This document shows positions 7,071-61,772 of a stretch of DNA of 64,000 nt, piece by piece; position 1 is the first letter of the stretch, and every line of letters begins with the position of its first letter. The position numbers and the translations under genes were made by a program. Origin of the DNA: Alphaproteobacteria bacterium. Its GTDB lineage: Bacteria > Pseudomonadota > Alphaproteobacteria > UBA7879. The notes below the pieces were generated by a model. The model did no database searches and was not told the origin of the DNA. It was given only the letters and a program-made list of their open reading frames with translations. The DNA lies in the NCBI GenBank assembly GCA_002869105.1, contig PKTP01000010.1:55789-119788 (forward strand), read 5' to 3'.

Positions 7071-7819
7071 TTACTCCTTCCATGCATGATACGCACGCAC
7101 CACACCACATGCGTAATTTTTAACAGATATAGACTGATAGTTTGCCTCTTCTAAAAGCTGGCAAAATGTCTCTGGCGCCATAAATGTTTCAATGCTCTCG
7201 GCTAAATATTGATAAGCCGCCTCATTTTTGGCAACCCATTTTCCCATCAGGGGCAACAACCCAAAAGCATAGCCATCATAGATCCTTTTAATCACCTGGC
7301 TTTTGGGTTGGCTGAATTCCAAGCAATGAAAAGAGCCGCCGGGCCCCAAACACCGATAACTTTCTTTCAAAGCGGCCTGAACATCAGACACATTTCGAAT
7401 GCCAAAGGCAATGGAATACGAATCAAAAGCATCTGATTCAAAGGGCAAACGCTCTGCATTGGCGTGTATCCAGTCAATATTTTTAAAGAGGCCTTGATTA
7501 AACAGCTGATCCTGGCCCTTTTTGAGCATCTCTTCATTTAAATCAGTTGCAACAATCTGATAATCAAGGTTGTTCTTTTCCAGTCGACGTACAAGGGCGG
7601 CTGTAATATCACCCGTTCCAGCAGCCACATCCAGATGCTTCAGACCAGGCTTTAGCGGAAAGTCAGCAACAAATGATTTTTCCAAAGACGGTGTTGAAAT
7701 CCACTCATTAAGTCGTTCATCAGATCATATAGATCAGAAACATCGGAAAAAATCTTTTGAACACCCTCTCTTTTTTCTTCAGGGGTCACTTTTTGAAAAC
7801 CAAAGGGAGTTTGTGTCAT
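7071..7819 (-). pseudogene. ubiE: ubiE/menG demethylmenaquinone/ubiquinone C-methyltransferase, frameshifted: N-terminal 55 codons (7819..7655) are in a different frame from the SAM-MTase body (7685..7071)
   Basis: The upstream frame from the ATG at 7819 encodes MTQTPFGFQKVTPEEKREGVQKIFSDVSDLYDLMNDLMSGFQHRLWK..., a clear UbiE N-terminus. It runs into a stop at 7652. The body LDVAAGTGD... is in the frame one base off and, taken alone, would need a TTG start. A 5-nt homopolymer (T5 on +, 7677..7681) sits at the junction, and one extra A would restore ...HRLWKKSFVADF.... Confidence 0.7.
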
Positions 7820-23564: not shown

Positions 23565-24149
23565 TTACTTTACGATTGTGTCATAGCTTTTCTGCCTGGA
23601 AACAAAGGCTTTAGCTAGACCCTTCATGGCAGCGGCTTTGTTTTCAGCGAGCACCTTCCAGTGCCCTTTCAAGCTAACCACATCAAATTGGTATTGTTCG
23701 ATAACTTCTATGAGGTCTTCACAGTTTTTAGCCATGGCTTGAAGGTGTGATTTTTCCAGTCGACTTAAAGTTGTCACCCCTTGAGGCTTTTGTGTTAATT
23801 TTTTAAATACGCCCAGCGGAGAATTATCATCTTCTTGAATGCGTTTTTTATCATCCAAATCATCATCATCATCTTCACCATCTTCGTCTTCGTCATCTTC
23901 GTAGCTGGAAATATATGATCTTTGCTTTTTCTTTTTTTTCTTTTCTTTTTCTTTTTCTCTTTTGATACGCTCATCTTCATCTTCTAGAACACCATAGGTG
24001 TTCGCCAGATTGACTAAGATCAAACAGTGTTTTTTGTATTCCTGCATTTCTTGCTTGGTTTGATCGCAGGATTTTTCATCTTCTACCCTGATAGAATAAG
24101 ACATTAAACACAAAGAGAGCCCAATAAGAATAGATAAAAACTTGATCAA
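23565..24149 (-). CDS. Hypothetical secreted protein with a K/E-repeat and poly-Asp/Glu low-complexity core
   Basis: The ORF-track ORF (to 24305) overlaps the upstream gene. A TTG at 24149 preceded by GGAGG(N5) gives a clean signal peptide MIKFLSILIGLSLCLMSYS. The mature part includes EDEDERIKREKEKEKKKKKKQRSYISSYEDDEDEDGEDDDDDLDD. Confidence 0.45.
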   Translation of the reverse strand: MIKFLSILIGLSLCLMSYSIRVEDEKSCDQTKQEMQEYKKHCLILVNLANTYGVLEDEDERIKREKEKEKKKKKKQRSYISSYEDDEDEDGEDDDDDLDDKKRIQEDDNSPLGVFKKLTQKPQGVTTLSRLEKSHLQAMAKNCEDLIEVIEQYQFDVVSLKGHWKVLAENKAAAMKGLAKAFVSRQKSYDTIVK

Positions 24150-24216
24150 TAAAACCTCCGTGTTGATATTATTATGGGGAACTAATGCATTTTTTGTCAA
24201 TGACAATATCTGCACA

Positions 24217-24681
24217 TCAGTGGGCTGGTGCACCTGCCCACGGCTCTCGAAAACCAATACCAGAATCCTTAGACGCTCGGCTTGATTTATCTTCTTTGAG
24301 CTCAAACTGCTTGAGCCTACTCTTCAAAATATCAGAGGCATATTGGTTTTCCCGTAGCACTTGTTTATTGAAAGAAGGGGGAGATTGATCCGATTGCGTT
24401 GAGAGAAGATTCAACATAAAAATAGGTTGTTTTTTATAGCTTAACCCCAATCCAGGTTTTGTCTTTTTTTCATAACTGCTTGCTCGAAACTGATTATTGC
24501 CTTGTGCATGAAAGCCACGGCTTGCCAAGCCTTTAGTAGGTTTCTTATACACTGATGAATGATAGCCAACATCAAGATTGATTGGCTTTTTTTTCCGGGG
24601 ATAAAACGAGGCACCCATCCCTAAAAAAAGGGGAATAAAAGTTAAAAGAAAAATATATTTTTTATATTTCATTTTGATCAA
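24217..24681 (-). CDS. Hypothetical secreted Lys-rich protein
   Basis: 154-aa ORF with a signal peptide (YIFLLTFIPLFLGMGASF). The rest is basic (K/R-rich), with no recognisable domain. Confidence 0.4.
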   Translation of the reverse strand: MIKMKYKKYIFLLTFIPLFLGMGASFYPRKKKPINLDVGYHSSVYKKPTKGLASRGFHAQGNNQFRASSYEKKTKPGLGLSYKKQPIFMLNLLSTQSDQSPPSFNKQVLRENQYASDILKSRLKQFELKEDKSSRASKDSGIGFREPWAGAPAH

Positions 24682-26101: not shown

Positions 26102-29100
26102 TTGATGATGAGAAAAAAATCACTTCCTGACTCTAAACCCCGGGCTGCGTCTAAAAATATTTTTTTAAAGAATTTATCGCTATCGGGCACCCCTAAAGAT
26201 TTACTAGCTCTTTTGCTTGATGATCCCTCAACCAGTGGTGAGGACTTAGAGGAGCTTGGAAAAGCAGACCTTGAGCTTCTGTTAACAGAAAGCGTCAACT
26301 GCATAAAGAATACCGCCGCACAAGAAATTGTTATAGAATTTCTAATGCTCTCACATGAACCAAAAAACAAAACCGCTGTTTTAATTCACAACCAGGATAA
26401 ACCATTTTTGGTAGATTCCATTACAAACTGTCTACGCCTGGAACAACTAAATGCTGATTATTTCTTTCACCCCATCTTTAGACGAAAAATAAGCAATACA
26501 GGCAATCTCTCTCTTATTGCGCCAGACGAAGAAAAGCCACATGAAAATGAATCTCTGATTATCATTGTTATCAATCAGGACCTTCAAAAAGAGCAAAAAA
26601 AACAATTACATTTGAGCCTAGAGCATGTTCTCAGCCAAGTTGGACTAGCTGTTACAGACTGGGAAGAAATGCTCAAGAAAATGACCCAAGCCAAGAGCAA
26701 TATTGATCTGGGTAAAAAGCATTTTAAATCTACTTTCCTGAGTGAAATAAAGAATCTCCTGGAATGGTTTGAGCAGGGTCATTTTACATTTTTAGGATTC
26801 CGGGAATATATCTTTGAAGATCAAAACCCAAAAATCACTCAAAAGCTTGGCATTACCAAAGCACAAAGTTCTTGTTATTTTAAGCTGAATTGTACCCTGA
26901 ATGATGAAGGGCAAGACTTTCTACCAACAGATGAGCTCTTTATCATCACCAAAACCATCAGTCGCTCTTGGGTCCACCGATCAACACCCATGGATGTTAT
27001 TCGGCTCAAAAAATTTAATAATACTGGAGAAACTGTTGGGGAATATGAGTTTATTGGTTTGCTGACCTCCACGGCCTACAATATCAGTATTAAGCACATT
27101 CCCCTCCTTTCACAAAAATTAGAAATCGTTTTAGCAGCAAGTAAAACGCATCAAAACACCCATACACAGAAATCAATCATCCATATTCTAGAAACACTGC
27201 CCCGCGATGAATTCTTTCAATTCAGTGATGCTGATTTAATCTCCCTTGTACGGCACATTTTACAACTCCAAGATCGTGATCGTTTTCTCACTTATATTCG
27301 TCCTGATCCACTTGGACATTTGATTTCTGCGTATGTTTACCTTCCCACACAAAAATACAGCGATATGCTTCGTCAGAAAATTCAAGTTATTTTAGAACAA
27401 AGGCTTCAAGCACACGTCAACTCCTACAAACCAAATTTAGATCCCGATACCACCTATGCACGCATCTCATTTTCTCTTGCAAAAGCATCCGATCAAAAAA
27501 CCAAACTAAACACAAAAGAGCTTCAAAAAGAAATTGAAGAAGCTTCACAATCTTGGTCAGAAAGGTTCAAGGCCCTTTTGCTCAATGAGAAAGGTATTCC
27601 ATTAGAGTTTTCAGAGGCATTTCCAAAAAACTATCAGCTCCACCACACGCCCACTGAAGCCCTCTACGATACTAGAAAAAGCTTACAATCTCAAAATGAT
27701 GGCGACAAAATCGTTCATTTAGAACTCCATCAGGATCAAACATATAAAGTCAAGATTTACTATCCAGGACCTGCGGCGCCTTTAACAGAGTTAATGCTTG
27801 TTTTTGAACTCATGGGGCTAACCATAAAGTCTGCAATGAGTTACACAGTTGATAAAGCAGGAACAGCTTGTTTATTTACGATTCACGATTTTATTATTTC
27901 CATCCCTCAGGAAGTCAAGAGCAAAAACCCAAATCATTTAGGCAACATCGAGGATGGCGTTCAATCTATTCTAAGGGGCTATTACGAAAATGACTTCTTA
28001 AATTCTCTTATCTTTTATGCCAACTTGACTGTGTCACAGGTTAATGTTTTCCGGGCTTATTTCAAATATCTAAAGCAAATACGGTTTCCTTACAGTTTTC
28101 GGCTGATTTCTTCTGTTTTGAAAGAAAATGTAGCGTTTACCCAAATCATATGGTCTCTTTTTGAGAAGCGCTTTGACCCAAGTCTTAAAAATCAAAATTT
28201 AAATCACCTTCATTACAAGATTGACCGTTATCTTAAAAAATTAAAATCCCTTGAAGAAGATAGTATCTTTAGAGCGCTTTATACCCTAATCAAGGCTAGT
28301 CTTCGTACAAATCACTTCCAAAGAAAGTTGGCTGTATCACCCATAATTATAAAATTGGACTGTGCTTCCATTAACTTCCTACCAGAACCAAAGCCCATGA
28401 TTGAGCTCTTTGTCTATCACAAAGACTTTGAAGGCGTTCATTTGCGCACGGGTAAGGTAGCACGCGGTGGCATGAGATGGTCTGATCGGATTGAAGATTT
28501 TAGAACTGAAATTCTAGGCCTGATGAAAGCACAAAAGGTTAAAAATACGGTCATCATTCCTGTTGGCGCTAAAGGGGGATTTGTTCTCAAGAAAGCATTC
28601 AAACCTGAAGAACGCGATGAGAAACAAGCTTTTGGGATCGCGTGCTATCAGAAAATGATCCAAGTTATGATTGATATCACCGATAATGTGATTAACGATA
28701 AGCCCAAGCACCCTAAGAACATTGTGTGCCATGATGACTATGACCCCTATCTTGTTGTTGCAGCTGACAAAGGAACCGCCACATTTTCTGATTATGCAAA
28801 TGAGATTGCTCTAGAAAATAAATTTTGGTTGGGTGATGCTTTTGCCTCAGGGGGATCAAATGGTTACGATCATAAGAAGATGGCCATTACCGCAAAAAGT
28901 GCCTGGAAGTCCGTTCAACATCACTTCCGAAAACTCGGCGTTGATGTTCAGGAAACCCCGATTGATGTTGTTGGTATTGGCGATATGTCCGGGGATGTTT
29001 TTGGCAATGGCATGCTTTGCTCTGATAAAATCAGACTGATTGCCGCTTTTAATCACCAGCATATCTTTATTGATCCAAACCCTGATCCCAAGAAAAGTTA

Positions 29101-30868
29101 TGATGAGCGCCAAAGAATGTTTCAGCTTAAAAGGTCGACATGGCAGGACTATAATCAGGATATGCTATCCAAGGGTGGGGGTATTTACAGTCGCTCTGAT
29201 CGAGAAATTGATCTGTCTTCCCAGGCCCAAAAAGCTCTTAAAATTTCAAAAAAAAGAGTCAATCCCAATGAATTAATAAAAATAATTTTAAAAGCTCCGG
29301 TTGATCTCCTCTGGTTTGGGGGAATTGGAACTTACGTAAAAAGCCGTCAAGAAACCCAAGATAGTGTCAATGATCACAGCAATGACGATATTCGTATTAA
29401 TGGATCTGACCTGAAATGTACAGTTGTTGGAGAAGCTGCAAATTTGGGCATGACTCAGCTTGGACGCATTGAATTTGCGCTTGAAGGCGGACATGTTAAT
29501 ACTGATGCCATTGATAATTCCGCGGGTGTTGACTGCTCGGATTATGAAGTTAATATCAAGATCCTTCTTCGCAAACTTCTCCTTGAGAAAAAAATTACAG
29601 AACAGCAGCGCAACACGCTCCTCAGGGGCATGGAAGAAGAAGTTTCTGAATTGGTTCTATTTCATAATACGGCTCAGAATAATGCCATTTCTATTATTCA
29701 AGAAAGAGGGCTTAAAGTCCTGAGTAGGCAACAACGTTTTATGCGTTTTTTAGAATCAAAAGACTATTTAAACCGGCAATTAGAATTTTTACCCAGTGCA
29801 GATGGTATGCTTGAAAGACAAAATGAGCGAATGGGTCTGACGCGCCCAGAGATCGCTGTCTTGCTCGCCTATGGAAAAATTTTCACCTATGATCAAGTTT
29901 TAAAAAGTTGCCTCTTTGAGCAAAGATATTTTGTGAAAAATCTGAAAGACTACTTTCCAAAAGCACTGTCTCAGAAGTATCTCTGGGCTATAGAAGAGCA
30001 TCCATTAAAAAAAGAGATCATTACGACATCTATCTGTAATGAAGTTGTGAATCAACAAGGTCCGTCTTACCTAACAGAGATCATGTCAATAACCAACGCA
30101 GAAGCTGAGATTATATTACTCTATTATTATCTGATTCGAGATAGCCTGAGTATCAAAAATCTCTCCCAAGCGATTAATGATCTGAAAGCAAATATCCCCT
30201 TTGATTCCCAACAAAAATTAACCCTTGAGCTGATGACGGCACTGGATTACTGCGTGATATGGGCTGTGTCAAATTTAGAGGTGCATAAAAAGAAAAATTT
30301 TGATTTAGAAACCACAATCACACACACCCATCAAAAAATTTCTGCTTTACGAGAAAAACTCCCTCAAATACTCGATAAGCTCTCCCTGAGAGAACTCGAA
30401 AAAGCCAAGGGCGCCTATCTAAAGAAAGGCGTTCCTGAAAAATTAGTACATCATGCTTTAGCCAATCGTCATCTAAAATACGCCTGGGTTTTTCTAAAAA
30501 TCAGTCAAGAACAACACCATGATTTTCTCAAGGTCGCTGAAATCTTTTTTATGCTGAATGGCTTCCTTCACCTTCCTTGGTTCCATGAAAAAAATGAGCT
30601 TCTGAGAACAGATGATCCATGGCGAAAAAAGAATATCACACAGATCAAAACTGAACTTGACAGAGCTCATTTTAAATTAACAAAACAGGTGTTATCAAAG
30701 ATGCCCTCCAAAAAATCCTCTGTGTCCCATTGTTTTGAAAACTGGAAAGATCAAGCTCAAGTCAAGGAGTATCAGAAACTCATGAAAGAATTTATAGGCT
30801 GTCAAAAAATAACCATGGACATGCTAAGAATTGCATTAAACTCTCTGTTATCCCTGATGCAGGAATAG
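26102..30868 (+). CDS. gdh: Large NAD-specific glutamate dehydrogenase (about 180 kDa)
   Basis: 1588-aa ORF with the Bac_GDH catalytic core (ARGGMRWSDR...IIPVGAKGGFVLK...VAADKGTATFSD). This length is typical of the large NAD-GDH class. Confidence 0.9.
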   Translation: MMMRKKSLPDSKPRAASKNIFLKNLSLSGTPKDLLALLLDDPSTSGEDLEELGKADLELLLTESVNCIKNTAAQEIVIEFLMLSHEPKNKTAVLIHNQDKPFLVDSITNCLRLEQLNADYFFHPIFRRKISNTGNLSLIAPDEEKPHENESLIIIVINQDLQKEQKKQLHLSLEHVLSQVGLAVTDWEEMLKKMTQAKSNIDLGKKHFKSTFLSEIKNLLEWFEQGHFTFLGFREYIFEDQNPKITQKLGITKAQSSCYFKLNCTLNDEGQDFLPTDELFIITKTISRSWVHRSTPMDVIRLKKFNNTGETVGEYEFIGLLTSTAYNISIKHIPLLSQKLEIVLAASKTHQNTHTQKSIIHILETLPRDEFFQFSDADLISLVRHILQLQDRDRFLTYIRPDPLGHLISAYVYLPTQKYSDMLRQKIQVILEQRLQAHVNSYKPNLDPDTTYARISFSLAKASDQKTKLNTKELQKEIEEASQSWSERFKALLLNEKGIPLEFSEAFPKNYQLHHTPTEALYDTRKSLQSQNDGDKIVHLELHQDQTYKVKIYYPGPAAPLTELMLVFELMGLTIKSAMSYTVDKAGTACLFTIHDFIISIPQEVKSKNPNHLGNIEDGVQSILRGYYENDFLNSLIFYANLTVSQVNVFRAYFKYLKQIRFPYSFRLISSVLKENVAFTQIIWSLFEKRFDPSLKNQNLNHLHYKIDRYLKKLKSLEEDSIFRALYTLIKASLRTNHFQRKLAVSPIIIKLDCASINFLPEPKPMIELFVYHKDFEGVHLRTGKVARGGMRWSDRIEDFRTEILGLMKAQKVKNTVIIPVGAKGGFVLKKAFKPEERDEKQAFGIACYQKMIQVMIDITDNVINDKPKHPKNIVCHDDYDPYLVVAADKGTATFSDYANEIALENKFWLGDAFASGGSNGYDHKKMAITAKSAWKSVQHHFRKLGVDVQETPIDVVGIGDMSGDVFGNGMLCSDKIRLIAAFNHQHIFIDPNPDPKKSYDERQRMFQLKRSTWQDYNQDMLSKGGGIYSRSDREIDLSSQAQKALKISKKRVNPNELIKIILKAPVDLLWFGGIGTYVKSRQETQDSVNDHSNDDIRINGSDLKCTVVGEAANLGMTQLGRIEFALEGGHVNTDAIDNSAGVDCSDYEVNIKILLRKLLLEKKITEQQRNTLLRGMEEEVSELVLFHNTAQNNAISIIQERGLKVLSRQQRFMRFLESKDYLNRQLEFLPSADGMLERQNERMGLTRPEIAVLLAYGKIFTYDQVLKSCLFEQRYFVKNLKDYFPKALSQKYLWAIEEHPLKKEIITTSICNEVVNQQGPSYLTEIMSITNAEAEIILLYYYLIRDSLSIKNLSQAINDLKANIPFDSQQKLTLELMTALDYCVIWAVSNLEVHKKKNFDLETTITHTHQKISALREKLPQILDKLSLRELEKAKGAYLKKGVPEKLVHHALANRHLKYAWVFLKISQEQHHDFLKVAEIFFMLNGFLHLPWFHEKNELLRTDDPWRKKNITQIKTELDRAHFKLTKQVLSKMPSKKSSVSHCFENWKDQAQVKEYQKLMKEFIGCQKITMDMLRIALNSLLSLMQE

Positions 30869-30887: not shown

Positions 30888-32063
30888 ATGAAATATCAAT
30901 CAGTCAAAACATTCATTCATAATCCCAAAAATGTGGGCCTCTTGCTAACTATCTCAACCATTATTGCTCTTGTGTGGCAAAACAGCCCTTGGCGCCCTCT
31001 TTATACAGATCTGTTTTCAGCCCAGCTTTCTCTGCCATTGGGAGTGGTGACAATTAATAAGTCCGTATCGCTCTGGATCAACGATGGATTAATGGCAGTT
31101 TTTTTCTTGCACGTTGGTTTGGAAATCAAACGGGAACTCTTACAAGGAGAACTCAACTCTTTCAAAAAAGCACTACTCCCCGCGATAGGTGCGATGGGAG
31201 GGCTTATCATACCAATTGTACTTTATAAACTGTTTGTTGACAGTGCATCAGCCTATGCTAATGGTTGGGCCATACCTGCTGCAACGGATATCGCCTTTGC
31301 ACTTGCACTTTTATCTCTCGTTTCTTCAAAAGTGCCTCAATCCCTTAAAATCATTCTTTTAGCCATGGCAATTATTGATGATATTGCTGCCGTCATTATC
31401 ATTGCCTTTTTCTACACACCCCATTTAGACATAAGTTTTTTACTATGGGCAATAATTCCTCTCTTTGGTTTATGGACCCTGAACCGAAGAGGCATAGGTG
31501 TCACAGGCTTTTATATACCCTTGGGATTCTTGTTGTGGGTTTTGATCCTAAAATCCGGCATTCATGCAACCCTCGCAGGAATTATGTTCGCTTTTTTCAT
31601 TCCTATAAAAGCCAATAAGCAAAATAAGTCTATGTTGATCACGTTAGAGAAAAAGCTGCATGTCGTTGTCATGGGTTTTATTTTACCTCTTTTCGCGCTG
31701 GCGAATGCCGGTATTCCTCTCACAAATATTTCCATTGAAAACCTCACACATCCCATGACCTATGGAATCATGGCGGGATTGTTCTTTGGTAGTCAGATTG
31801 GTGTTTTTGGAAGTGTGAGAATAGCGAAACTCCTGGGTGTTTGCACGCTTCCTGATAACATTCGCTGGTCCCACTTTTATGGTCTCTCAGCACTGATGGG
31901 AATCGGGTTTACCATGAGTCTTTTCATTGCCAATTTATCCTTTACCGATCCTGATATTCTTGATCGGGCACGATTAAGCATCTTACTGGGGTCATCTGCC
32001 TCAGCCATTTTAGGATACAGCATCCTGAAGCTTATTCCAGCAAAAGCCCGGATTCAGTATTGA
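30888..32063 (+). CDS. nhaA: Na+/H+ antiporter NhaA
   Basis: 391-aa ORF with 12 TM helices and NhaA signatures WINDGLMAVFFLHVGLEIKRE and AIIDDIAAVIIIAFFYT. Confidence 0.85.
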   Translation: MKYQSVKTFIHNPKNVGLLLTISTIIALVWQNSPWRPLYTDLFSAQLSLPLGVVTINKSVSLWINDGLMAVFFLHVGLEIKRELLQGELNSFKKALLPAIGAMGGLIIPIVLYKLFVDSASAYANGWAIPAATDIAFALALLSLVSSKVPQSLKIILLAMAIIDDIAAVIIIAFFYTPHLDISFLLWAIIPLFGLWTLNRRGIGVTGFYIPLGFLLWVLILKSGIHATLAGIMFAFFIPIKANKQNKSMLITLEKKLHVVVMGFILPLFALANAGIPLTNISIENLTHPMTYGIMAGLFFGSQIGVFGSVRIAKLLGVCTLPDNIRWSHFYGLSALMGIGFTMSLFIANLSFTDPDILDRARLSILLGSSASAILGYSILKLIPAKARIQY

Positions 32064-55309: not shown

Positions 55310-56538
55310 TGTCTGACGGTGGGTCCAACCCTTATCGCCATCCGTTTGTCCGCTGGCTTGAAAAGCGTTTGCCGATCATCAGCTTTGTAGAGCACGCCCT
55401 CAAAGGCTACCAGGTCCCTAAAAACCTCTCGATCCTCTGAACAAGTGGGTTTATCGCCGGCTTCATGCTGGTGGTGATGATCCTCACTGGGATCTTGCTC
55501 GCCATGCATTATGTCCCCCATCCCGATCATGCCTTTGATAGCGTTGAGCGCATCATGAGAGAGGTTAATTTCGGCTGGCTCATTCGCTATCTTCATGCCA
55601 ACGGTGCGTCGCTGTTTTTCTTGGTTGTGTATATGCACATGTTCCGGGCGCTCTATTACGGCTCCTACAAATCACCGCGAGAAGTGTTATGGATCATCGG
55701 CATGATTATTTTCCTGGTCATGATGGCCACCGCTTTCTTAGGCTATGTGTTGCCCTGGGGGCAGATGAGTTATTGGGGCGCCACAGTCATCACCAATCTT
55801 TTTACAGCGATCCCCTGGATTGGGGATAGCATTCTTGAATGGCTGCTTGGTGCACCTTACGTAGGGGCGCCTGCTTTGAACAAATTCTTTGCGCTCCATT
55901 ATTTGCTTCCCTTCCTCATGTTTTTACTGGTCTTTATTCACATATGGGCCCTGCACACCCATGGATCCAATAATCCCACCGGTATTGAACCTAAAACCGC
56001 CGAAGACACCCTTCCCTTCCATCCCTATTACACTGTTAAGGATCTCCTTTCTATCGCCGGATTTATGGTGATTTTTGCTTTTTTCATTTTCTTTGCGCCC
56101 AACTTTTTTGGGGAGCCCGAAAATTACATCCCCGCTGATCCAATGGTCACCCCCGACCACATTGTGCCTGAGTGGTACTTTCTTCCGTTTTATGCGATTT
56201 TGCGCGCCATTCCCGATAAATTAGGGGGCGTTGTTGCCATGATTTCATCGATTTTGGTGTTGTTTGTGTTGCCCTGGCTTGATGGCTCCAAAGTTAAAAG
56301 CTGCACGTTCCGACCGATTTTTCGGGCCCTGTTCTGGGTTTTTGTTCTCGATGTTCTCATTCTAGGCTGGGTAGGTGCTAAACCAGCTGAAGGGCATTAT
56401 ATTGGAATCGGGCAATGGGCCACCGCTTATTACTTCATTCACTTTTTAATTTTGGTGCCCCTCGTAAGCCGTTTTGAAAAGCCCAGTGGCTTGCCCGACT
56501 CTCTCTCTGCCTACTATCGAGACAAGGGCTGTTCATGA
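55309..56538 (+). CDS. petB: Cytochrome b of the bc1 complex; full-length frame carries a single in-frame TGA at 55438..55440
   Basis: TAATG overlap with petA. The frame from 55309 encodes [70 protein letters not shown]..., collinear with cytochrome b N-termini (...PKNLNYWWNFGSLAG...). The ORF-track ORF 55465..56538 is the downstream 357 aa in the same frame, with heme-ligand His residues intact. Confidence 0.85.
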
Positions 56539-57362: not shown

Positions 57363-58199
57363 GTGATCAATACTTTCACTTTCAGATTCGTTCTTCTTTT
57401 TTTTAGTGCTGTTGTATCCGCTGAGCACATTCAAACCGTCAAAATTGAAGAAATCCGTTGTGATCTTCCTCACAATAAAGACGCTGATGATTTTGCCAAA
57501 ATTGAAATCATTGACTATCAAAAATGCCAAAAAGATTTTTCATACGCTCTCGATCGCTTTCTTTGGGGCTATCAAACCATTCAATCCTGTCCAACTCTTC
57601 AAAACAAGGCGGGCCAAAAACGCGCTGAATTAGGCAAAGTTGCCGACTGCCTAGCTGTTTACGATGCACCTTTTTTGAATAAAATCGTTTCGGAGCAATT
57701 GATGGCGGCTCGTAAGAGTCGTGACCAGAAATCCAAACGTTCTTCACACCAACGGTATCCCCATGTATCGCCCGCCAACACAGAACTTTATGCTCTTCTA
57801 GATCAGTATAGCCCTCTCTATCAAATTCTAGATGCGATCATTCGTTATCTTGAGAGCCCGACACCACACATTGCCCAAAAGCAAACGATTGTCCCCCTAA
57901 ATTCAAATAAATCAATTTCCATTAATGTTGCAGAGCTCATCAAACAGTTTGAAGCACATGCTCAATCAGTTGAGCGGGGAGTTAACAAAAAAGAAAATTT
58001 AAAAATCCTCAAAGCACAAAAGATAGTGCTGTATCTGATTGACTCTCTTATTCCAAAAGTATCACCTCATCTTTACGTGTGTGCCTGTGGCGACAAACGA
58101 TACATCATCAATGCCACCACCCTTAAAAAAAATCCCGAAAAATTCTTCGTGCTTTTCCCTCAAGTTTTAGAATTTATTGAATCCAATCAGTGCGCCTAA
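57363..58199 (+). CDS. Hypothetical secreted protein
   Basis: 278-aa ORF with a GTG start and signal peptide MINTFTFRFVLLFFSAVVSA. Several Cys. No family recognised. Confidence 0.45.
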   Translation: MINTFTFRFVLLFFSAVVSAEHIQTVKIEEIRCDLPHNKDADDFAKIEIIDYQKCQKDFSYALDRFLWGYQTIQSCPTLQNKAGQKRAELGKVADCLAVYDAPFLNKIVSEQLMAARKSRDQKSKRSSHQRYPHVSPANTELYALLDQYSPLYQILDAIIRYLESPTPHIAQKQTIVPLNSNKSISINVAELIKQFEAHAQSVERGVNKKENLKILKAQKIVLYLIDSLIPKVSPHLYVCACGDKRYIINATTLKKNPEKFFVLFPQVLEFIESNQCA

Positions 58200-58322
58200 A
58201 ATGAAAAAAAACGAAATTATAGCCTTCTGTCAAAAGCCGTTACGGGTGTTGATTTCAAGCCTTTAGCCCAGACAAAATTCAATAAGCATCCCCAAATCTT
58301 TGGCCCTCTTGCTCAAAAAACG

Positions 58323-59837
58323 TTGCAAGAACTAGATAAAATGACCGATGTTAACAGTCTCATGGTCGGGTTTTTTAAGGCTCTTGCACGCGGTCAAGAA
58401 ACAGCCACCATCCCCAATGAAAAGTTTAACCATTCCCGCACACACCCCCAGCAAGGCGAAAAAAAGATTTTTGCCACCGCCCAGTACACCGTTGATACCC
58501 AAAAGCTTTTGACGCTGTTAACCTCTCTGCCCGTTCAAAAAATAAGTCCCTCAGATTTTACCAATTTCTTTCTCGAATCTATTCTCACCTCTCTTGATGC
58601 AAGCTATGCCCAAGAGCTGCCCAAAAACCTCCAAGAGGGCATCAAAAACTCCAGCAGATCTCTCGCTGAAACCAACCTTCTGGGGTGCAAGATCAAAGAA
58701 ACAGGTGCAGACTTTCATGTTCTTTTTGACCCCAAAAAATGTACAAACCTCGTGTATGCTTTTTCACATCTCTACAGACTCTTCATTTTTGCCAAAGACT
58801 GTCAGACGAATAGTTCACAACCCATGACAAAAGCCCGGGAATGTTTAAAAACCGCAACAAAATCCTTTGAAAAGAATCCCACGTATCCGCCAGAACTCAA
58901 ACAGCCCTTGGGGGAAATTTCACATCAAATGAACGTTGAGACAGCTCTTCGTTCTTTTTCAAAGGCGCTAGAAAATATCAACCCCAAAGGACAGTTTTCA
59001 TCTCAGTTCTCCTCCCATAGCCCTGCCGGTCGCACCACCCTTCAAAACAGTTCCATGATCACCTTTTCGATCGCGGGTCTTGTCAAACATGTTCGCAACG
59101 CCATCAACCAAAAGCTCGCTGATGATGTTGCCCTCATGAAAAAATATCAAGCCCCCCGAACGCACAACCAAGCGCTGAAGGAACTTGATCAACAGCAGGC
59201 CTCTCAAGCACAAGCTTCTTTAACGTACATCTCGCAAAAAATTAAGAGCGGGCTCTCTGAGCGCATGGTCTGTCCATCCTCCCAGTCAGACATATATATA
59301 AACCGCTTTGCCTGCTCTCTGGGGGATATCGCTCTTCTCAACACCCTTTATGACATCGTTGCCTTTCAGCCAACGTGCAAGGAAGAACTCAACGTTCAAA
59401 AGTCAAAATTAGTGTCCAAATGCTTCACCTATTTTGAACAGGCAAACGAGAGCGGCTTTAAAAGTCTTTCTGCTGATCAAATGAAAACGTTGGCTCAAGC
59501 TCATTTTTCTCTCTTTAACTTTTTGAAAAGCTACACCAACGCTGTTAAAACGTTTTCAGAGTCCTTTAACGTTCCCATAGGTTTTCCTGAAGTTCAGGAA
59601 ATAACGTTCACGGTTAAAGAGGTGAATGAGGCCATACGCAAAAGCCAGGCCCACAAAGCCACAGACCCCCATAATCAACGACGGGCTGGCGCCGTGTTCA
59701 ACGCTCTTTATCAGTTGATCCTTCTTAAAAGATCAGACCTATACAATAAGAAGGCGCCGCCGGCTCCCAAAAAACGAAAAAAAATGGGGCGATTCTTTCC
59801 TAAGAAGAAACAACAATCAAAAGCAAAAAAAACCTGA
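58323..59837 (+). CDS. Hypothetical cytosolic protein with a C-terminal polybasic, nuclear-localisation-like tail
   Basis: 504-aa ORF with no signal peptide or TM helix. The C-terminus reads NKKAPPAPKKRKKMGRFFPKKKQQSKAKKT. Confidence 0.45.
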   Translation: MQELDKMTDVNSLMVGFFKALARGQETATIPNEKFNHSRTHPQQGEKKIFATAQYTVDTQKLLTLLTSLPVQKISPSDFTNFFLESILTSLDASYAQELPKNLQEGIKNSSRSLAETNLLGCKIKETGADFHVLFDPKKCTNLVYAFSHLYRLFIFAKDCQTNSSQPMTKARECLKTATKSFEKNPTYPPELKQPLGEISHQMNVETALRSFSKALENINPKGQFSSQFSSHSPAGRTTLQNSSMITFSIAGLVKHVRNAINQKLADDVALMKKYQAPRTHNQALKELDQQQASQAQASLTYISQKIKSGLSERMVCPSSQSDIYINRFACSLGDIALLNTLYDIVAFQPTCKEELNVQKSKLVSKCFTYFEQANESGFKSLSADQMKTLAQAHFSLFNFLKSYTNAVKTFSESFNVPIGFPEVQEITFTVKEVNEAIRKSQAHKATDPHNQRRAGAVFNALYQLILLKRSDLYNKKAPPAPKKRKKMGRFFPKKKQQSKAKKT

Positions 59838-60563: not shown

Positions 60564-61772
60564 TTATATAACCTCAAAGAATTCTTTAAGCGTCTTTTGA
60601 GATTTTTTTGGATAAGCACCCAATTTACAAAGCCGCTGCGCCCCCAGCATCCAGATGGGGCTTAACAACAACGATAACACTGTCAAACAAATCACCAAAT
60701 CGCCTTCCGCTTTACTCAACAGGTTTTGATCCAGACCAATGGTTGCCAGCACGAATGAAAATTCTCCAATCTGCGCCAGCACCAAACTACTTAGCAACGC
60801 TGTTTCAAGTGGCTGGCCAAAATACTTCAAAAATAGGGTGTTCAAAACGGTTTTAACAACGAAGATCATCGAGAGCAAAATAACAACCTTTAACCAATTG
60901 TGGGCCATGTACTCAAGATCAAGCAACATCCCAACCGAAAGGAAAAAGGTCATTAATAAAATGCTTTGTGTTGGATGCGTTGCTTTGATAATGGCATGTC
61001 GATCGGCGGTGTTTCCCAAAATCAACCCCGCCACAAACGCCCCATAAGCAGCTGATACCTCTAAAAACCCACTCAATGCTGCAGCTAAAAAGCAAAACGC
61101 CAAGCCCATTAAAGGATACAATTCTTTTCGTTGGCCAACGGCGTCTAAAAAAGGAATCCGAACGCGCTCTTTTTTTGAGAGGTAAAGAATAATCACAACC
61201 AAGCCGCCGATGGCACAGACAATTTTAAAGATCGTTAGCAGAGAGAATCCTTGAGCATTACCAAAGCTTTTGAGAATCAACGTCATCGGCACAAAGGCAA
61301 GGTCTTGCGCAATCAGAATACCGATTGTCAACTTACCCGCCGTTGATTTCAGCTCGCCAATATTTTCCAGTGTTGCCACCGAAACAGCCGTACTACTAAG
61401 GGCAGTGATAAACCCAATCAAAAGGGTTGTTCCCACCGAGAAATTAAAAATAAAAGCGGCGCCTGTCATCATAACCAGCGCACTGGTCACCTGCAAGGCC
61501 ACACAACCCAAAGCAATATGCCAAATTTCACGGAAGGTTCGAAGGTTCATCTCAAGGCCCAAGATGAACAGAAGCAGTAAAACGCCTAATTCAGCCATGA
61601 ATCCGATCAGTTCTCTGTTTTCAATCAGTGAGAGCCCCGACGGTCCTAAGATAAGTCCTGCGATTACATAGCCCAAAACAGCCGGCTGACGGAGCCTTGT
61701 AAACAAAAATCCACTGATTAAAGCAACAAAGGCAACAAGAGCAATTTCAGTTAAGTTTCCAGCGCTATGCAT
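60564..61772 (-). CDS. CPA2-family monovalent cation:proton antiporter (Kef/NapA-like membrane domain, no KTN domain)
   Basis: 402-aa ORF with about 12 TM helices and the Na_H_exchanger pattern (GYVIAGLILGPSGLSLI...ELGVLLLLFILGLE). Confidence 0.7.
   Translation of the reverse strand: MHSAGNLTEIALVAFVALISGFLFTRLRQPAVLGYVIAGLILGPSGLSLIENRELIGFMAELGVLLLLFILGLEMNLRTFREIWHIALGCVALQVTSALVMMTGAAFIFNFSVGTTLLIGFITALSSTAVSVATLENIGELKSTAGKLTIGILIAQDLAFVPMTLILKSFGNAQGFSLLTIFKIVCAIGGLVVIILYLSKKERVRIPFLDAVGQRKELYPLMGLAFCFLAAALSGFLEVSAAYGAFVAGLILGNTADRHAIIKATHPTQSILLMTFFLSVGMLLDLEYMAHNWLKVVILLSMIFVVKTVLNTLFLKYFGQPLETALLSSLVLAQIGEFSFVLATIGLDQNLLSKAEGDLVICLTVLSLLLSPIWMLGAQRLCKLGAYPKKSQKTLKEFFEVI

Follow-up and report, generated by a model that had tools for sequence, protein, structure and literature searches.

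The window analysed here is a stretch of 64,000 nucleotides from contig PKTP01000010.1, part of a metagenome-assembled genome held at NCBI under the name 'Alphaproteobacteria bacterium', with locus tags of the form C0582_*. It is densely coding, has a GC content of 43.6%, and includes among its genes ccmABC, the isc operon, genes for the F0 part of ATP synthase, and a bc1 operon encoding the Rieske protein, cytochrome b and cytochrome c1. A cluster mate of the cytochrome b, at 90% identity or more, bears the NCBI label 'Rickettsiales bacterium'; nothing seen within the window suggests an endosymbiont genome that is strongly reduced.

The ubiE locus and its two reading frames

The minus strand of the window carries a ubiE gene, predicted to encode a C-methyltransferase of the UbiE/MenG/Coq5 type, in which the following parts can be told apart:

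7071..7819, minus strand: the whole ubiE locus, with a 1-nt deletion inside it, recognized by its TIGR01934 score, by protein P0124 and by alignment with PDB 4OBW
7652..7819, minus strand: ORF of the N-terminal fragment, comprising 47 genuine UbiE residues, eight out-of-frame residues and a TAA stop; it matches PF01209
7677..7681, minus strand: run of five A on the coding strand (five T on the plus strand), the site of the change from A6 to A5, where the two frames join, located by comparison of contigs
7071..7685, minus strand: C-terminal ubiE frame, 204 codons counted from a TTG, with the SAM-binding motif LDVAAGTGD; it matches PF01209

The N-terminal ORF starts with the ATG at 7819, just 5' of which stands AAAGGG, and extends for 55 codons: MTQTPFGFQKVTPEEKREGVQKIFSDVSDLYDLMNDLMSGFQHRLWK, then NHLLLTFR, then the TAA at 7654..7652. 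Its 47 UbiE residues form a typical UbiE/MenG N-terminus, ending in YDLMNDLMSGFQHRLWK. The remainder of UbiE is held by the C-terminal ORF (7685..7071), which is in the -1 frame relative to the first, and the two frames meet in the sequence TGG AAA AAT, at the A5 of 7681..7677, exactly where a preliminary description of this DNA had placed the junction. That description had also noticed that the frame opened by the ATG at 7819 encodes the start of UbiE, as the PF01209 match bears out, and that the annotated C-terminal ORF is cut short at its N-terminal end; the upstream residues are indeed cut off, although they number 47 and not the 45 or so that had been estimated. At NCBI the two parts stand as separate entries, the first as 'hypothetical protein C0582_05105' (PLX29258.1) and the second as a 209-aa UbiE (PLX29257.1).

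Addition of one A to the run joins the frames through ...HRLWKKSFVADFPLKPGLKHLDVAAGTGD... into a protein of 249 aa that scores 232.7 bits against TIGR01934 (cut-off 158.35), and each fragment matches PF01209 on its own. The repaired protein is the same, residue for residue, as P0124, which comes from other metagenomes. Because this very protein exists elsewhere, the repair by exactly one A, as it had been proposed, is proven. With the family it shares the stretch YDLMND...HRLWK and the SAM motif DVAAGTGD, and by this match (TIGR01934 and PF01209, with the structures 4OBW and 4OBX) it is predicted to be a UbiE/MenG/Coq5-type C-methyltransferase; the gene in the window differs from the family in that its first 47 residues are in another frame as a result of the 1-nt deletion. 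The two ORFs are one UbiE gene interrupted by the loss of a single base, and not a chance arrangement.

The position of the break is informative. Residues 16-242 of the repaired protein align with yeast Coq5 (PDB 4OBW), and 17 residues upstream of the break are invariant in an alignment of nine family sequences, so that the break sits within the folded domain and not in a dispensable leader. The invariant residues of the alignment include Y31-D36, H43, R44, W46 and K47, as well as D64, A66, G68, T69, G70 and D71. A split enzyme, with the C-terminal piece translated independently, was considered and found unlikely: the piece would have to start at a TTG or an ATT that is without an SD-like sequence (none was seen in the sequence examined upstream of the TTG at 7685), and it would be without residues located within the Coq5 fold.

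Strains and assemblies carrying the long and the short run

A search with the repaired protein led to a cluster at 90% identity that contains both forms of the gene, namely intact proteins of 249 aa (P0124 among them) and truncated proteins of 204 or 209 aa, and the DNA was fetched for every member. In all 16 of the conspecific contigs from other samples the junction reads GG-AAAAAA-TC, that is, A6. The shorter run was found only in the window and in three further contigs, all from the source sample: L013 (ENA ERZ794996, SPAdes NODE_1, coverage about 17), L014 (Logan assembly of SRR5894286) and L019 (JGI 3300007102, a contig of 224,710 bp). These match the window at 100% identity for 14-17.7 kb and are three assemblies of one source population; they probably share one read set, and hence lend no independent read-level support to one another. 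The gene in the window is split at A5, whereas in the 16 conspecific contigs it forms a single ORF. Homologues listed at 42-72% identity are likewise single proteins, of 245-290 aa, with the lone exception of a 217-aa entry that covers 87% of the query. A6 is the ancestral state, and A5 is a change private to one sample. Conspecific contigs are present in at least 15 other metagenome samples. A pattern scan of metagenome contigs that allowed for either A5 or A6 brought no further carriers of the short allele and one A6 contig that had already been counted, and the matches listed by a contig scan with UbiE alignment were relatives at 39-46%, with no close relatives among them. The literature yielded nothing when searched for the accessions of the sample, the assembly and the proteins.

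The nearest other strain (ENA ERZ24794615 and ERZ24794578; Logan SRR28060602) is 99.9% identical to the source and carries A6. Its relation to the window is particularly close around ubiE. Contig L017 shows no substitution in 1,011 bp and L015 shows 13 in 11,758 bp; the ubiE A-run is the sole gap against either of them, and the sole indel against L016 as well. Since L017 has no other difference from the window across ubiE, and the gene consequently bears no further degenerative change, the lesion must be very young if it is real.

A single-base indel in a homopolymer is a classic type of artefact, and the preliminary description had listed a sequencing error among its possibilities. On such an account the organism would have A6 and an intact ubiE, one A having dropped out of a single sample's reads or consensus. 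This would agree with the restriction of A5 to assemblies of one sample, with the complete identity of the gene to the intact allele but for that base, and with the retention of genes that depend on quinol. The genome retains Rieske, cytochrome c1, ccmABC and ATP synthase genes, which point to a requirement for quinone, and a true null should therefore be costly. The consensus, moreover, is not perfectly stable, in that at one position the window departs from two further assemblies of the source sample. That position is 47952, in a patatin-like gene (47848..49203, minus strand), where the window has T but G stands in both the JGI and the Logan assembly, as in every outgroup checked (Leu to Ile); it is the sole difference in 20,720 bp between the window and the other same-sample assemblies, and points to a polymorphism within the sample or to a third assembly version behind the window.

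Other evidence runs against an error. A5 is the reading of all three assemblies (JGI, ENA-SPAdes and Logan), with no disagreement at the ubiE run. When 29,061 bp of the window were compared with the sister strain (L015, L101 and L105), only the ubiE run, out of 274 A/T runs of at least 5, differed in length; the 273 that were unchanged include 42 of 7-9 nucleotides, which are far more prone to error and of which none (0/42) varied. As the sole indel among 274 runs, the ubiE deletion is unlikely to reflect a systematic homopolymer artefact. The source genome also has a private nonsense substitution, from GAA to TAA, which is not the kind of change that homopolymer errors produce:

58197..58199, plus strand: in-frame TAA (from GAA) that splits an 824-aa hypothetical gene (57363..59837), identified by comparison with L105, L106, P0292, P0293 and P0295

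This codon cuts the gene into pieces of 278 aa and 498 aa, entered at NCBI as PLX29310.1 and PLX29311.1, both hypothetical proteins. Position 58197 is G (GAA) in L105 and the gene is a single one of 824 aa in L106, which makes the TAA private to the source. The hypothetical protein evolves fast, with a pN/pS of about 0.5 against L106. Polarised by outgroups, the changes on the source tip comprise 5 synonymous, 4 nonsynonymous, 1 nonsense and 1 frameshift, and those on the sister tip 5 synonymous and 8 nonsynonymous; such a surplus of protein-altering changes is the pattern expected of very recent variation that has not been purged. Taken together, the assembled sequences argue that A5 is probably a real mutation, and an error of sequencing or consensus is unlikely.

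Decoding of the shortened run

A gene with both frames open around an A-run invites the question of recoding. The preliminary description had pointed to transcriptional slippage, as documented in reduced endosymbiont genomes. In functional recoding, useful full-length UbiE would be made from the A5 allele, either by an RNA polymerase that adds an A or by ribosomes that slip by -1. For the ribosomal variant the slip would fall on G AAA AAU and would yield ...WKNSFV..., with an Asn that is tolerated there in homologues (P0008 reads WKN at the same site). The junction is indeed an A-run, and it lies in a 72-nt overlap over which both frames are open. In addition, frameshifts in repeats of 4A-5A were reported to leave detectable, sometimes physiological, activity of another methyltransferase expressed in E. 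coli (PMC3812077). A run of five, though, is far below the tracts at which slippage is efficient: efficient transcriptional slippage in bacteria is associated with runs of about 9 or more A/T (PMC5009743), insertions by slippage climb exponentially as the run gets longer (PMC5574713), and the usual hotspots are mostly at least 10 nucleotides long (PMC3812077). Nor does the sequence G AAA AAU conform to the canonical X XXY YYZ heptamer, and re-pairing in the P site would fall on GAA. Folding of the 87 nt downstream gave -20.2 kcal/mol against a mean of -22.4 for shuffled sequences (z = +0.74), no better than the shuffles, and there is thus no stimulatory structure in that segment. The flanks are the same as those of the ordinary A6 allele, so that nothing in them is adapted to recoding, and the split is found in no relative. 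Functional recoding is, on these grounds, very improbable.

Comparison with known systems leads in the same direction. The slippage-rescued poly(A) genes of Buchnera and Blochmannia (cited in PMC5009743) resemble ubiE in having a frameshift at an A-homopolymer in a housekeeping gene with both frames open; there, however, the tracts are of about 9 or more, the frameshifted state persists across lineages, and the genomes are AT-rich and reduced, whereas the ubiE tract is A5, its split is confined to one sample without conservation in relatives, and the window, at 43.6% GC, gives no evidence of such a genome. The parallel with reduced endosymbionts is not supported. Programmed -1 frameshifting, as in E. 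coli dnaX and the transposases of IS elements, likewise combines a downstream frame in -1 with an A-run at the junction; ubiE differs in its lack of a canonical heptamer and of a stimulatory hairpin and in the single-ORF state of its relatives, and no upstream SD-like stimulator was noted. There is a likeness also to the bypass described by Rockah-Shmuel et al. 2013 (PMC3812077), which concerned 1-nt deletions in A repeats of 5-6 nt, between conserved motifs, in a methyltransferase gene. That work was done by laboratory drift and plasmid expression in E. coli, whereas the ubiE of the window is known from sequence alone. Frameshifting indels in repeats of 4-5 nt were bypassed there at a low level, about 3.4-fold more for each added nucleotide, and given such bypass the A5 allele may not be fully null. 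Trace amounts of full-length UbiE are possible, as noise and not as a mechanism; a programmed rescue is not supported.

The reading that we prefer, and hold to be likely, is a genuine and very recent deletion from A6 to A5 that has left a null or strongly hypomorphic ubiE allele. One A of the Lys-Lys codons AAA AAA would have been lost by replication slippage in the population sampled as SRR5894286 / JGI 3300007102, and the 47 conserved residues of the N-terminus would thereby have come to stand in another frame than the methyltransferase core. Ordinary decoding should then give a stub of 55 aa and, at best, a poorly initiated C-terminal piece that is without part of the fold; full-length UbiE would arise only by rare, unprogrammed slippage of RNA polymerase or ribosome on the short A-run. 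Two points are inferred: the presence of A5 in the reads themselves and the inactivity of the enzyme. The allele would be a young loss-of-function mutation, segregating or just fixed, in other words an incipient pseudogene, in a lineage that bears further disruptive mutations not yet purged. An early pseudogene had been among the options of the preliminary description, and it is the one favoured by an ancestral A6 and an A5 private to one sample. Young pseudogenes and segregating loss-of-function alleles in bacteria are, accordingly in kind, the category that the gene fits with no difference of substance: there is a single disabling lesion with no secondary decay, the ancestral state is intact in all relatives, and the tips show an excess of protein-altering changes. 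The case is ordinary in that respect, a further instance of a gene disabled in a natural population by an indel in a homopolymer, and would matter more if lesions in short tracts prove to be phenotypically rescued in nature. For the public record of this genome, the truncated 'UbiE' and the 'hypothetical protein' should be joined as one frameshifted gene.

Cytochrome b, quinol-dependent respiration and other features of the window

The bc1 operon of the window contains a lesion of another kind:

55438..55440, plus strand: TGA in the reading frame of cytochrome b (gene 55309..56538), in place of an invariant Trp codon, identified by comparison with homologues and contigs

Every homologue examined has the Trp in question. 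The window carries the TGA, as do L103/L104 from the source sample and L105 from an independent sample (ERZ24794615), and the codon is TGG in the six more distant conspecific contigs L106-L111, which belong to relatives at 95-98%. A reading of TGA as Trp (code 4) was ruled out, for TGA is an ordinary stop that terminates many well-supported genes of the window, and no suppressor tRNA was found within the window. The TGA is a real nonsense codon rather than a change of code, and older than the ubiE lesion, since it is common to the source and the independent sister while A5 is seen in the source only. Given its recurrence in an independent sample, and the private change from GAA to TAA in the 824-aa gene, disruptive mutations genuinely persist in this lineage. 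NCBI has no protein between the Rieske protein (PLX29308) and c1 (PLX29309), a gap that is, in our view, consistent with cytochrome b having been handled there as a pseudogene. In metabolic reconstructions of the source genome neither ubiE nor cytochrome b should be counted as intact.

A separate observation concerns P0290, encoded on an ENA contig of 2,463 bp, which is an N-terminal fragment of cytochrome b of 45 aa that ends in ...NLSILSH as against ...NLSIL*. The contig may be broken exactly at the TGA/TGG site, which would hint at a mixture of alleles in that sample.

The co-occurrence of the two lesions could mark the point at which this lineage begins to lose quinol-dependent respiration. 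It alone lends the case some mild interest, and the case would gain weight if the lineage truly sheds quinone-dependent respiration. On that account the loss of the ubiquinol-cytochrome bc1 branch would be directed: cytochrome b would have been inactivated before ubiE, which then lost its selective value and is now decaying. The order of events would suit such a sequence, with the TGA common to the source and an independent sister and the ubiE A5 in the source only. The roughly 6% of the window's coding sequence that ubiE and bc1 make up also contains two of its three lesions, a suggestive but weak coincidence, for which a post hoc estimate is about p = 0.01. Substitutions in cytochrome b point the same way, with 5 protein-altering to 11 synonymous changes on the branch of the TGA clade where the other branches have 4 to 26, but this difference is not significant (p = 0.24), and the pairwise pN/pS of the gene is an ordinary 0.07; a relaxation of selection on the gene in that clade was on these counts rejected. 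Against a directed loss there stand, further, the intact Rieske protein and c1, the sister strain whose ubiE is perfect despite the TGA in its cytochrome b, and the other quinone-dependent enzymes, which would still need quinone. No other ubi genes are annotated in the window. On balance it is rather unlikely that ubiE decays in consequence of the loss of cytochrome b. With the same reserve one might doubtfully picture a lineage caught in the course of dismantling its ubiquinol-cytochrome bc1 branch, by a cytochrome b nonsense codon in two independently sampled strains and then a ubiE frameshift in one of them. Both lesions could be 'leaky', being a UGA at a Trp codon and an indel in a short A-run, and could leave trace activity as bridging intermediates.

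Elsewhere on the minus strand, at 23565..24257 and 24217..24672, there are ORFs of 230 and 151 aa that have no Pfam match and share 41 nt, which they read in different frames. The sister contig L101 has the same arrangement, and the pair may represent either a gene that was frameshifted at an earlier date or a genuine overlap.

The window also encodes a giant NAD-glutamate dehydrogenase of 1,587 aa and Na+/H+ antiporters of three families (NhaA, NhaC and CPA-type), at the following positions:

26105..30868, 30888..32063, 46543..47838 and 60564..61772: NAD-glutamate dehydrogenase and Na+/H+ antiporter loci

As a guess, the antiporters together with the NAD-glutamate dehydrogenase may speak of a saline or alkaline habitat. 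On the plus strand, finally, 49374..51743 encodes a protein of 789 aa with two tandem D-Ala-D-Ala ligase modules (Dala_Dala_lig_N/C twice), which by its domain matches appears to be an unusual fused and duplicated Ddl.
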